Part shown: positions 11,301-17,300 of the stretch, piece after piece | Layout: every line of letters starts with the position of its first letter | Position numbering within the stretch: the first letter of the stretch is position 1 | NCBI RefSeq assembly: GCF_000026545.1 | Contig: NC_011603.1 | From: Escherichia coli O127:H6 str. E2348/69 | Lineage (GTDB): Bacteria; Pseudomonadota; Gammaproteobacteria; Enterobacterales; Enterobacteriaceae | Direction: 5' to 3' (one strand) | Length of the DNA stretch: 64,000 bases | Made by a program: the position numbers

Positions 11301-14300
11301 CTTTTTTTCTTATTTTGTCTTCATTTATATTTATTCTTTACTCTCTTCCAGCAAGGTTAAGAGGTCAGGTTTTTGTTCCTATGGGACCAGCTCTTTCCGC
11401 GTCATTTTTTATATGTTTAGTTTATCATTAATTACAGGTGTTGCAGCATGTGTTCTCAATGCCAGTTCTGTGAATAATATTGAGCCTGCACTATTACTGT
11501 CAGTTATGACCGTCGAAGGTGGTAAACCTGGTAGTATATCCATTAATAAGAATGGAAGCCATGATTTAGGTATTATGCAGATAAATACCCATGCATGGTT
11601 AAAACTTATCAGTAAGAGTTTTTTTAACGGAGATGAGAGGTCTGCTTATGCCAAACTTAAGGATGATGCATGTTTTAACATATCAGTAGGGGCCTGGATC
11701 CTCCGCAGATCTATTATATTCGAGGGTGGTAATTTATGGGAAGGTGTGGGCCGATATCATTCGGCCACACCAGAGTATAAATATAGATATATAGATAAAG
11801 TAAAGAATGTCTATGGTCAAATAACATACAGCCAATCAATACATCAAAGGAATATGTAAGTAAAAATTATGGTTCGTCTATGTTTATATTGAGAAATAAA
11901 AGAAAAGAGTCAGGTTTGTCACTGATTGAAGCGTCATTAGTGATTATTTTATCTGGCCTGGTTATTGTGCTTGTTCAGTCAGCAATTTCAAAAATTATTA
12001 AGTATGCTGTTCATGAAAATGCACTGCATGATGTTTCGTATGTAATGTCTTACATTCAGGATACATTACAGACATCATGCTATGGAAAAGAAAATATTGT
12101 TTGTGATGGAGTGATAAGTTCAGTAAAATCAAACGTTAACTCTGGTAATAAAATAAAGGTTGATGTTAAAAAAGACGGAAAATATGTATCTGTGTATATT
12201 TTATACACCCTGTCAGGGAACGAATATTTTGGCAGAAATGAAGATTTCGGTAGCATGTTATTTACGCATGTAAGCGCTTATTCTGGGAGAATGGATAGCA
12301 GTACAGGAGTTGTAAGTTCGGTTCTGGGATGGTGGAAAGTAAATTCTGATGACACAATTTTTTTAGGTGGGGATAATAATAAAAATCTTTTCTTTTACAA
12401 TAATTTCCGGGTGGATGTTTTATGATAAGAAAAGAAAGCGGCCTTTCATTAATTGAAGTAATGATTGGCGTCCTTTTTTTTTCGATTGTTTCTCTTTCTG
12501 TATATAACTATTACAACAGGAGCGCAGAACAACATTATATGAATAATGTCTCTGTCGTTATGTGCAGATATGCTGATGCTCTTAGCTACTATTTACAGGA
12601 TAGCACAGCAACCAATGGTAACGGTAGTGTATCATTATCTACTCTGGTTGCTTCTGGATATTTGCCACCAATGCAAGAAACGTCTGGTGTTGGAGAATAT
12701 GAAATAAAAATGTATGTCGATAAGAATAAGAATGGTCTGATAGCATTATATGGTGGAGAGTATTATTCACTTACCTCTGAGAACATAAAAAAATTTCTGG
12801 GGATTCGTGGTGCATCTGCTAAAGATAATAAAATCATATCTGCAGGTGGGTATTATTCATTGCCTGTATCTGACTTTACAGGTTTTCGCACTGTTAATTT
12901 AAGAGGATTAATGCTCATTCCTTCCATTCAGACATCAGGGCAAAATTGTGACAGAGGTGGATATGATTTTTGAAGGACGTCAGCAAAAGGGACTGTCGCT
13001 TATTGAAATAGCGATGGTAATTATTTTGTCTGTGGTATTTATTTCTGGCGGGAGTTATATTATATCTCTTTTCAAGGTTTTTGCTCAATCTTGTGTTGTA
13101 GCAACAGATATGAATTCTGTCAGAAATATAATCATCAGTTCGGATGTTGAATATAAAACTGGAAAATATGATGTATCATCCATAACAAATGACAATCGAT
13201 TTAATAAATATCAGGTGTATTTTGGAAATGATGGTTATACTTTAATATCAGGAAGTTCTCCTGTTAGTGTGGATGTGTTTTTTATTACCTGCTATTTGGC
13301 AAAATATAACTGTGTATGGATTCTCAATACCAACAATAAAATATACGCGAAACATATGTCTGCTGTTCTCCCGTTAGAGTTATTAAGTGCATATGGCCTT
13401 AATTATTCAGGAGAGAGTGGTGTCACAGGGCTTCTGTTTAAACGGTACTAGTTATGTTATTCTTCTGGTGTGGTTTTTTTTCATTAATTGTATCCATTTT
13501 AAATATTTCCATGGGTTATAATGATCGCCTATTCCTCGATGAACAAAACCGAATTATTAAAGAAAATATATATGTGGATTATCTTACTGTTAATGCTGCT
13601 GTCTTGTCTGAAATTTGCACAACAGATGCAGGCAAGTGCAAGGATAAAACGAGTATTCTGTCGGACGAGCTTTCAGAATCGCTGAAAGATAAATTGTCTG
13701 GATATGATAATAGCATTACACCTGAATTTTGTATTAACCATGGGAAGGTTATAGTCTATACAACTTATCATTTTAATATTAGCCGTTATAAAGACAGCTC
13801 ATTGTTCAACCTTTCAGACGTGCCGAATAGCGACAGATTAGCTTGTTCAATAAATGATAATTCTGGTATTGCTATTATCAAAACATTCAACAAAACGGGA
13901 TAGCACCACCAGAACTGTAAGTTTTTTAGGCTATGTCCCATAATTGTTTCATCAATTAAAAATCACGCCGCCATGACAGCAAATAGTGGTGGAAACCCAT
14001 GAAATCACTTCAAACAAATGAACAGGTCTCATGGGTTTTATTAACATAAAAGCCACAACTTCCCGCCTTCATTGCGCTCCCGACGACAATATTAATAGCT
14101 AGAAAATGTTTAGAACAATGGTTCAATTTCCTAACCATCAAGTGATTAAGTGTGTGATTCATAGACATCGTTTCACTATAATACCTCACTATGAACAGGG
14201 AAATTCAGCAGCGGCTACAGTGGGTAAAACTCTATGAAACGTCCGGTGATGCGGGATTTGTATGCCGTCGCTGTGGCATTTCTCGGCCCACATTGCGTAA

Positions 14301-17300
14301 ATGGTGGCGCAGATATCTGGCTCAGGGCATCGCTGGTCTGGAAAGCCACAGTTGTCGCCCCAGGCGTTCACCATCAACGAAAACCGGCACTTGCGAAGTC
14401 GCTCTGATTCTGGAGTTACGTTCTCAGCGAAATCTGGGTGCAAGACGTATTCAAAGCGAGTTAAAACGACTCACTGGCAATAGCAACAATCCACAAAGTC
14501 CTTTGCCAGAATCAGGTTAAACCTGTTGTTAAATTTCGGCGTGAAGCTGATTTCATTCGCTACGAACGCCCTGTTCCCGGTGATCGGGTTCAGATGGATA
14601 CCTGTTAAATTGGCCCCGGCTTATATCAGTACACATCTGTTGATGATTGCACTCGCTACAGAGTCCTGAGGCTCTACTCTCGTCGCACGGCGGCAAACTC
14701 ACTGGATTTTATTGATTGTGTTATTGAAGAAATGCCTTTCCCGATACAGCGCTCTCAGACAGACCGGGGAAGAGAATTTTTTGCCGTTAAAGTGCAGGAA
14801 AGATTAAAATAATACGGCATCAAGTTTCGTCCAAATAAGCCAGCGTCACCTCATCTTAACGGAAAGGTTGAACGTTCCCAAAAGACAGACAAAGCAGAGT
14901 CTTACGCTACCGTAGATCTTTCTGCTGATGACCTGAAGGAACTGCAGGCAGAATGGCAGCATTACTATAACTGGGAACGTCCTCATAGCGCTCACAACGG
15001 TAAAACTCCGATGGAACGCTACTTTGAACTTGCTGAGAAAACACCATACTCCGATGCCGTTCATGCAAAGTATCAGCCCAATGAAGAGCATATACAGGAA
15101 CAGAATTACAAGCTTGAACTTGAACTGAGAAAATTGAAACGATGTCTATGAATCACACATATTATGACATAATCACTTGCACTGTCGCTATTATTCTGGC
15201 GATTTCAATAAAGGAACTTGCTCGCGATCTGTCATTTTCTGAAAATCTTCATGCTGCATTTCGATTTTCCTTCTAAGATCATAACTCGCATACCTGTTCT
15301 TTTTATGTATATCCATATCTATTTTTGTGACGAGTTCAAACCACAATGTTCTCATTCCCCATGCCGCGTCATGAAACATTTCCACAACGGCGTTAGTTCG
15401 CAGATTGGGCAAAAGAGATGCTGGAACTGTTCGTCCAGGAATGGGGGCGATAACTGATGTGATCCTACCCACGTAATATGGACACAGGCCTAAGCGAGGT
15501 TCTGGTTTTCAAATTGTTCCGGACTGAGGCCGCCACACCAACTGTGCCGCCGCCACCGATTGTAATCACATTCGATATAATTAAACACCGTTGCCCGCAT
15601 TATTTCCCGGCTGATAAAGTGTTCTCCATGGATACATTCCACTTTCAGCGAATGAAAGAAGCTTTCCACGCAGGCATTATCGTAGCAGCAACCTTTTGCG
15701 CTCATACTTCCACGCAGATTATGCCGCTTCAGTTGCGCCTGATAATCTGCTGAACAGTACTGGCCTCCACGGTCCGTGTGAACGATAACGTTCCGGGGCC
15801 TCTTACGCCGCCACAGCGCCATCTGCAGGGCATCGCAGGCCAGTTGCGCCGTCATGCGTGGCGACATTGACCAGCCAATAACGGCACGTGACCACAGGTC
15901 AATGACCACTGCCAGATACAGCCAGCCTTCATCTGTACGTAAGTACGTGATGTCTCCTGCCCACTTCTGGTTCGGGCCACTGGCGTAAAAATCCTGCTCC
16001 AACAGATTTTCTGACACAGGCAGGCCGTGTGCGCGGTAGCTGACCGGGCTGAACTTCCGGGAGGCCTTTGCCCTCAGTCCCTGACGGCGCAGGCTTGCCG
16101 CCACGGTTTTTACGTTAAAGGGGTAACCCTGAGCACGCAGTTCATCCGTCAGGCGTGGGGCACCGTAACGCTGTTTTGACCGGGTAAAAGCCGCGAGGAC
16201 AACGCTGTCGCAGTGTTGGCGGAACTGCTGACGCGTGCTTATCCTTGTCCGCCGCTGACACCACGTATACCAGCCGCTGCGGGCCACCCGGAGCACGCGG
16301 CACATTGCTTTGATGCTGAACTCAGCCTGATGTTTTTCAATAAAGACATACTTCATTTCAGGCGCTTCGCGAAGTATGTCGCGGCCTTTTGGAGGATAGC
16401 CAGCTCTTCATCCCGTTCTGCCAGCTGGCGTTTGAGACGTGCAATCTCGGTAGACATCTCCAGTTCACGTTCAGAAGACGTCTGCTGATTTTGCTGTTTA
16501 CTGCGCCAGTTGTAGAGCTGTGATTCATACAGGCTGAGTTCACGGGCTGCGGCAGTAACACCGATGCGTTCAGCAAGCTTCAGGGCTTCACTGCGAAATT
16601 CAGGCGAATGCTGTTTACGGGGTTTTTTACTGGTTGATACTGTTTTTGTCATGTGAGTCACCTCTGACTGAGAGGTTACTCACTTAGCCGCGTGTCCACT
16701 ATTGCTGGGTAAGATCAATCGTCCGCATCCCCATTTTACTGTCTTATATTATTGGCGCTGGCAACGCAACGTATCGAACGTAACAACCTGACCCTCCACA
16801 CCCACATTAAGCGGCTGGCACGTAAAACAATCTGCTTCTCGCGTTCCTTGGAAATCCACGAAAAAGTCATCGGTTCCTTCATTGAAAAGTACATGTTCTA
16901 CTGATTGGAAGCACTACCCTGTAGGGTTAGTATGAATGGTCATATTCTGCCACACTCCGATTTGCAGCCGCCAGGCTGCCGTGGATCCTTAGGGCGGTGC
17001 CATATTACGAGATAAGATCAAGCAATGAGTTAAGTTATAACTGGGGCCTGAATATATAGGGGGGCCACACCTTGAAAAATATCAGTAAATTTTTAAAAAA
17101 AAAGCATAAAAGTATTGATTTTTACAGAGTGGCAATAAAAAATCAATAGGAAACAAACGCGCATGAAGGTGGTTAATGCTTACATCTAAAAAAGAAATGC
17201 AGAGTTCTGAAAATAAACAAGAGGAGAATTTAGCGTTATTGTTAACTAATTACATTTCATATCAGAATATAGTTATATTTACGGGGGGGAATCAGTTTAA

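Follow-up and report, generated by a model that had tools for sequence, protein, structure and literature searches.

Nested insertion sequences and a probable IS3-associated deletion between bfp and per on the EAF plasmid pMAR7

pMAR7 is a well-studied adherence factor plasmid (EPEC adherence factor, EAF) of the prototype strain of enteropathogenic Escherichia coli (EPEC), and it has already been sequenced, annotated, and published. The DNA analyzed here, a window of 64,000 nucleotides from E. coli O127:H6 strain E2348/69, corresponds to positions 1 to 64000 of pMAR7 (NC_010862.1) with 100% identity, and the segment from 13900 to 17200 is also a 100% match to the E2348/69 plasmid NZ_CP059841.1. 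Our subject is the 3,272-bp interval that separates the bfpL stop codon (13903) from the ATG of perA (17176). It contains six nested pieces derived from insertion sequences (IS) of four families, only one of which, a copy of IS3, is intact. We assign a probability of roughly 85% to the reading that this interval of pMAR7 and pMAR2 is a nested IS graveyard, that the E2348/69 lineage underwent an IS3-associated deletion of 11,678 bp, and that per expression today most likely owes nothing to the IS elements.

Insertion sequences between bfpL and perA

IS-derived DNA makes up 2,570 of the 3,272 bp (79%), with its last base at 17020. An earlier description of this DNA from sequence alone (hereafter the sequence-only reading) had called the gap almost entirely IS, which holds in that most of it is IS derived, although the wording was a little generous. 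The remainder falls into three parts: a 247-bp bfpL 3' flank, 300 bp of IncF backbone (15160 to 15459), and a 155-bp per upstream region. The interval had also been described as an IS landing zone. The six pieces from four families bear this out, as do further IS200/IS605, IS66, and IS21 elements in other EAF plasmids and the IS1294 reported upstream of per in atypical strains (PMC4594896). The EAF plasmids compared were pZ1322HEC0010-2, pEC404/03-1, p90-9133_1, pZ1323HEC0399-2, and others, with pB171 (NC_002142, AB024946) standing outside this set and considered through the literature. A scan of positions 13800 to 17400 against Rfam gave no match.

The intact IS3 occupies 15460 to 16717 on the minus strand and is exactly 1,258 bp long, and the view that it is complete was correct. 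Its two genes, orfA (16356 to 16652, 99 amino acids) and orfB (15490 to 16356, 288 amino acids), are both full length on the minus strand and carry an AAAAG slippery motif in their overlap, in keeping with a DDE transposase produced from the two genes by −1 frameshifting. The orfA product matches Pfam HTH_Tnp_1, while orfB matches rve, rve_2, and the NCBIfam model transpos_IS3 (339 bits against a cut-off of 160), and RefSeq labels 15490 to 16652 on the minus strand as "IS3-like element IS3 family transposase." The element is ∼99.7% identical to annotated IS3 copies. Its ends, TGATCC... and TGATCT..., match at 28 of 40 positions, with the right inverted repeat (IRR) at 15460 directed toward bfp and the left inverted repeat (IRL) at 16717 directed toward per. 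As had been noticed from the sequence, the flanking triplets differ (ATG before the element, ATC after it), leaving no 3-bp target duplication. This is the only IS3 on pMAR7. An inversion, which would be expected to leave a second IS3 copy with reciprocal flanks, was considered as the cause of the unlike flanks and rejected, no such copy being found in pMAR7. Elsewhere in the window, positions 26597 to 27022 hold an internal fragment on the opposite strand that is 84% identical to IS3 orfB (15944 to 16389) and is what is left of another element of the IS3 group.

On the per side, IS3 is followed by four fragments. Immediately adjacent, at 16718 to 16763 on the minus strand, lies the left end (∼46 bp) of another IS3-family element, here called ISX, whose remainder is cut off by IS3 and whose outer boundary is known within 2 nucleotides. 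The ISX sequence in pZ1322HEC0010-2 runs into an ∼1.5-kb IS3-family transposase pseudogene, and independent ISX copies in two unrelated plasmids, cS51a and ECONIH6, end within 2 nucleotides of 16762. An ISX end at 16732, where most relatives stop, was considered and rejected as a truncation in those copies, given that the independent copies reach ∼16762.

The second fragment, at 16764 to 16918 on the plus strand, is the right end of an IS1-family element and comprises the C-terminal 46 codons of InsB (stop codon at 16902 to 16904) together with an IS1-like terminal repeat. The coding part matches Pfam DDE_Tnp_IS1 with 77.3 bits over profile positions 86 to 131 of 131, consistent with a fragment only, and 16764 to 16919 shares 95 to 96% identity with IS1 copies from plasmids of Shigella and Erwinia. 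The end of this remnant, GGTAGTGCTTCCAA, is one that we take to resemble the IS1 repeat. The InsB-like C-terminal fragment recognized in the sequence-only reading is therefore real, but it does not abut IS3, since the ∼46 bp of ISX lie between them.

The two fragments nearest perA had been missed. At 16919 to 16987 on the minus strand is an ∼69-bp terminal end of an IS91-family (IS1294-like) element, with 85 to 91% identity to the ends of elements that carry an IS91-family (rolling-circle) transposase and with no coding sequence left. Its matches adjoin annotated IS91-family transposase genes at unrelated sites, including ravA, a TnAs1 transposase gene, pemK, and others. Membership of the IS91 family was judged by identity to the element end together with an adjoining GTTC/CTTG tetranucleotide; at this end the tetranucleotide is GTTC in pZ1323HEC0399-2 and NZ_CP024231.1 and GATC in pMAR7. 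The last piece, at 16988 to 17020 on the plus strand, consists of 33 bp left over from an IS3-like right inverted repeat, here called ISY, which occurs once in the window. Of its 33 bases, 28 align with the IRR of IS3; this alignment scores 19, whereas 2,000 shuffles reached at most 11. Two other assignments were tried for this stretch and rejected. A single IS3-like end from 16921 to 17020 is at odds with matches in many unrelated genes, which identify 16919 to 16987 as an IS91-family end and restrict the IS3-like repeat to 16988 to 17020. A 63-bp piece derived from the pemIK toxin-antitoxin locus was likewise set aside, because in NZ_CP024231.1 the same element end cuts pemK short. The IS91-like remnant, ISY, and the next 155 bp up to the perA ATG are common to all four EAF plasmids aligned, and these plasmids part upstream of the common per-side block at 16960, 16932, or 16718.

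On the bfp side, a hairpin followed by UUUUAUU at 13992 to 14043 on the plus strand lies ∼90 bp past the bfpL stop codon and is not IS derived. It folds as RNA with −20.9 kcal/mol (z −3.7) and is probably the intrinsic terminator of the bfp operon. Beyond it, at 14151 to 15159 on the plus strand, is a decayed ISEc18-like element of the IS481 family, 1,009 bp in length. Its perfect inverted repeats (TGTGTGATTCATAG..., at 14151 to 14175 and 15135 to 15159) show no difference from those that bound the intact ISEc18 annotated in CP058065.1, an element 1,020 bp long that encodes a 323-amino-acid transposase. Overall nucleotide identity to that copy is only 92.3%, and the element is therefore a relative of ISEc18 and not the same element. 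The transposase gene has lost 11 bp after 14469 and contains stop codons at 14606 to 14608 and 14810 to 14812, and with these two premature stops no transposase can be made. Because the gene is split, the NCBIfam model transpos_IS481 matches the two halves separately, with 68.6 bits (profile positions 1 to 88) and 167.6 bits (94 to 284), each below the whole-protein cut-off of 224 bits; Pfam matches are to rve, rve_3, and LZ_Tnp_IS481. The perfect repeats and broken transposase of this element had been correctly read from the sequence, except that the repeats are 25 bp long rather than 24 bp.

The same insertion site is found in pMAR7, pZ1322HEC0010-2, pEC404/03-1, and p90-9133_1, indicating that the ISEc18-like insertion is older than the split of these four plasmids. 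The pZ1322HEC0010-2 copy has the first stop codon and lacks both the 11-bp deletion and the second stop, and the decay has therefore been stepwise; the pEC404/03-1 copy is split by an IS200/IS605 element and truncated. No direct target repeat was found at the flanks of the pMAR7 copy (left end ...ATTAAG, right start TATTAT...), which instead form an inverted repeat. The element sits in the loop of a hairpin whose 10-bp stem is formed by 14139 to 14148 and 15170 to 15179 (CAAGTGATTA ... TAATCACTTG), and the reconstructed empty site folds as DNA with −7.9 kcal/mol (z −4.1). The intact ISEc18 in CP058065.1 adjoins a palindrome resembling repetitive extragenic palindromic (REP) sequences, which hints at a taste of ISEc18 for hairpin targets. 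Between this element and IS3, positions 15160 to 15459 (no strand assigned) are a remnant of IncF backbone whose homolog in R100 lies downstream of parM/parR, with 89.5% identity to R100 over 15160 to 15396. The remnant ends in an ATG at 15457 to 15459 that, in related plasmids, starts the open reading frame (ORF) of a resolvase remnant.

The left boundary of IS3 in related plasmids

The sequence-only reading had proposed looking for strain variation in this interval, and across the EAF plasmids compared the variation is extensive rather than absent. In pEC404/03-1 the bfpL-perA interval is 6.2 kb long and contains IS66 genes and IS200/IS605, and p90-9133_1 carries IS66 and IS21 there. In pB171, trcP/trcA lie between bfp and per and are flanked by IS elements, whereas they are absent from pMAR7 (PMC4594896).

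The closest comparison is with p90-9133_1 (CP042948.1), which differs from pMAR7 at 6 of 4,619 positions on the bfp side and at 2 of 1,258 positions within IS3. This plasmid carries IS3 at the identical per-side site, and there the element is bordered by a perfect 3-bp duplication (...GGAAATC-IS3-ATCGTCC...). On the bfp side, in both p90-9133_1 and pZ1322HEC0010-2, the sequence ...ACTGATG continues past 15459 straight into GACAGTCACC..., a continuation that belongs to a 157-amino-acid ORF with a partial resolvase domain, uninterrupted in both plasmids. The point corresponding to 15459 and the IS3 element are separated in p90-9133_1 by 11,678 bp, and exactly that DNA is absent from pMAR7. The stretch comprises the resolvase remnant, a serine-acetyltransferase-like gene, IS66-family and IS21-family genes, and trcA. 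In pMAR7 the junction falls between 15459 and 15460 without a single ambiguous base, the two parental sequences having no base in common there, exactly at the terminus of the IS3 IRR. We thus read the left boundary of IS3 as the scar of an 11.7-kb deletion, and this loss accounts for the absence of trcA. The ATC/ATC state in p90-9133_1, together with the 11,678 bp absent from pMAR7, likewise explains the unlike flanks of IS3. The sequence-only reading had suspected a later rearrangement behind these flanks, and the comparison agrees with that suspicion. The missing target duplication is a consequence of the deletion and does not mean that the element falls outside the IS3 family.

Other plasmids provide the state without IS3. 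pZ1322HEC0010-2, which was examined in detail, has an uninterrupted ISX with a single ATC, that is, an empty site, and has no IS3 at either junction. The ∼33 kb between its two junctions contain no match to pMAR7 apart from other IS copies. In all, three other EAF plasmids show bfp-side similarity that ends at 15459 and per-side similarity that begins at 16718, with the two points ∼33 to 34 kb apart; in two of the three these points rest on match coordinates. We searched 5,426 complete E. coli genomes and PLSDB for the pMAR7 junction and found it in a single genome, that of E2348/69, and in two PLSDB records, pMAR7 and the E2348/69 plasmid. An intermediate with two IS3 copies was not found in these collections.

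These observations can be set against two other accounts of the pMAR7 layout. The short layout could be ancestral, with the 11.7 to 33 kb in p90-9133_1, pZ1322HEC0010-2, and similar plasmids added later beside IS3; short intervals are sometimes ancestral, and the extra DNA is rich in IS elements. Such additions would, however, have had to extend a resolvase-like ORF seamlessly from the ATG at 15457 to 15459 in two plasmids. They would also leave aside that ATC/ATC is the mark of a fresh simple insertion of which pMAR7 lacks one copy, that pZ1322HEC0010-2 has the extra DNA with IS3 at neither junction, and that three plasmids were already seen with unbroken resolvase-to-trcA DNA and no IS3. With the pMAR7 junction moreover confined to E2348/69 in the collections searched, we consider the reverse direction, insertion in the other plasmids, very unlikely. 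An assembly artifact, in which the unlike flanks reflect a collapse or mis-join at a repeated IS3, might be imagined because IS3 is multicopy in E. coli and is present in 3,990 of the 5,426 genomes. We give this account next to no weight, as the same junction appears at 100% identity in two separate deposits (NC_010862.1 and NZ_CP059841.1) and the single IS3 on pMAR7 leaves no second plasmid copy to mis-join. A deletion in the E2348/69 lineage is the reading that we retain.

Several further features of the compared DNA were observed. Relative to pMAR7, p90-9133_1 lacks 67 bp upstream of perA (reverse complement ∼17830 to 18300; pMAR7 ∼16998 to 17064, between TAGGG-like short repeats), and its perA has a frameshift in an A-run near codon 108. 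Either the strain is per defective or these differences are long-read homopolymer errors. TrcA, a 147-amino-acid protein labeled "bfpT-regulated chaperone" (p90-9133_1 reverse complement 9768 to 10211), scores 175 bits with the NCBIfam type III secretion WxxxE-effector model and 112 bits with Pfam IpaB_EvcA, and these profile matches suggest an effector and not a chaperone; TrcA is, we believe, already listed among WxxxE proteins. In the chromosome of E. coli MEI003 (NZ_CP071263.1, 3444028 to 3449343), efa1/lifA lies in one block with an IS1 fragment, a copy of ISX (99.4% identical), a psiA pseudogene, and trcA. Some EAF plasmids have this gene set between bfp and per, and the block thus suggests an integration of plasmid-derived DNA into the MEI003 chromosome.

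IS3 and the transcription of per

The DNA between ISY and perA (17176 to 18000, plus strand) is the per upstream region at 17021 to 17175 on the plus strand, which is not IS derived, contains perA control sequences, and is conserved in all EAF plasmids compared. A perA-cat fusion spanning −155 to +21 serves as a reporter for PerA activation (PMC3581565). Judging from TTGATT at 17115 to 17120 and from the end points of this fusion, perA transcription would start near 17150. This start would place −155 at ∼16995 and the end of IS3 ∼430 bp upstream of the start. The distance from the IS3 end to the perA ATG is 458 bp, in agreement with the earlier estimate of about 460 bp.

The sequence-only reading raised the possibility that outward transcription from IS3 affects per, whether from a promoter at the IS3 end, either outward facing or hybrid, or by read-through, with perABC transcription being increased or changed as a result. 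IS3-family elements have an outward-facing −35 sequence in the IRR and can create hybrid or junction promoters, and the copy here is intact and lies upstream of perA. Its orientation is nonetheless the wrong one, as transcription of the minus-strand transposase genes runs away from perA, and the end that faces perA is the IRL, while the IRR with its −35 sequence points toward bfp. A consensus scan of the plus strand from 16718 to 17175 found no promoter-like site, and the scan for promoters and terminators gave counts not above those in shuffled sequence. Between IS3 and the native per region there are 303 bp of further IS fragments, and plasmids without IS3 at this site have the same conserved per upstream region. 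The fusion limited to −155 to +21 is, furthermore, the standard PerA-responsive reporter (PMC3581565). This argument from structure lends no support to an influence of IS3 on perA, and we consider such an effect very improbable.

A different route to altered regulation would run through the deletion itself, which took out trcA and brought per from 15 to 36 kb to 3.3 kb downstream of bfp. PerA-activated bfp transcripts might, for example, pass the terminator at 13992 to 14043, traverse the dead ISEc18-like element, run antisense across IS3, and enter perABC. If this were true, bfp read-through into perABC would constitute an extra positive-feedback arm absent from other typical EPEC, but we hold very little expectation that it occurs. 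Our preferred reading remains that the IS elements have no present role in per expression, and the picture of per control is unchanged by these findings.

History of the interval and comparison with known systems

From the anatomy of the interval, its shared and unshared junctions, and its exact breakpoint, we infer an order of events and a mechanism of deletion. On the per side, the IS3-like ISY would have arrived 155 bp upstream of perA, after which an IS91-family element would have entered the terminal repeat of ISY, an IS1-family element would have cut the IS91-family element, and the IS3-family ISX would in turn have cut the IS1 element. IS3 proper would then have inserted 46 bp inside ISX, producing the 3-bp ATC duplication. 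On the bfp side, the ISEc18-like IS481 element would have inserted into the IncF backbone hairpin just past the bfp terminator and later decayed. As the last step, in the E2348/69 lineage, 11,678 bp would have been lost between the IRR end of IS3 and the start of the resolvase remnant, leaving bfp and per 3.3 kb apart and the flanks of IS3 unlike. This loss could have come about by intramolecular transposition of IS3 or by recombination between two direct IS3 copies, the second of which is now lost.

Certain points weigh against this history and the conclusions drawn with it. The direction of change, a loss in pMAR7, is deduced from ORF continuity and from the target duplication, and the two deletion routes give the same product. 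The conclusion that there is no regulatory effect is drawn from how the elements are oriented, how far from perA they lie, a consensus scan, and a reporter whose DNA came from the B171 plasmid. p90-9133_1, finally, is an unannotated record in which long-read homopolymer errors are possible.

Beyond perC, the window contains further mobile DNA. Directly after perC, the minus strand carries broken transposase-like ORFs at 18851 to 19785 (one of them, at 19333 to 19785, has 150 amino acids), and IS debris therefore lies on both sides of per. Farther downstream of perC, at 20233 to 25001, are Tn3-family transposase and resolvase genes together with blaTEM-2. We presume this stretch to be the transposon for ampicillin resistance with which pMAR2 was marked to give pMAR7.

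Every piece in the interval belongs to a described IS family, and the whole represents ordinary IS-driven erosion of the kind seen around virulence loci on large plasmids. The variability of the interval was already known in outline (PMC4594896). What we add is a base-accurate map of the six nested IS pieces and the recognition of the left boundary of IS3 as a deletion junction of the E2348/69 lineage, neither of which is new in kind. Studies of bfp and per regulation use E2348/69 and pMAR7 as their reference strain and plasmid, and for them it matters that the short distance between bfp and per and the missing trcA are products of a lineage-specific deletion and not the general layout of EAF plasmids. 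The native per upstream DNA, for its part, is only 155 bp long and is bounded by IS remnants common to the EAF plasmids compared.

The elements and the deletion can each be placed beside a known counterpart. The IS3 copy shares with the IS3 prototype its length of 1,258 bp, the imperfect ∼40-bp terminal repeats starting with TGATC, and the overlap of orfA and orfB, and differs from it in lacking a target duplication (ATG versus ATC). The IS481-family element shares the gene layout and 25-bp repeats of ISEc18 but is 11 bp shorter and has two premature stops. With pB171 (through the literature) and the other EAF plasmids, pMAR7 has in common the bfp operon, the ISEc18-like insertion after bfpL, and a per upstream region with IS3-like and IS91-like remnants, whereas it lacks trcA and all else between the resolvase remnant and ISX. 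The pMAR7 event, although read from sequence alone, resembles the known IS-adjacent deletions and IS-IS recombination deletions on virulence plasmids, in which the breakpoint falls at an IS terminus, the IS is kept intact, and one copy of the duplication is lost together with the cargo, as in pMAR7.

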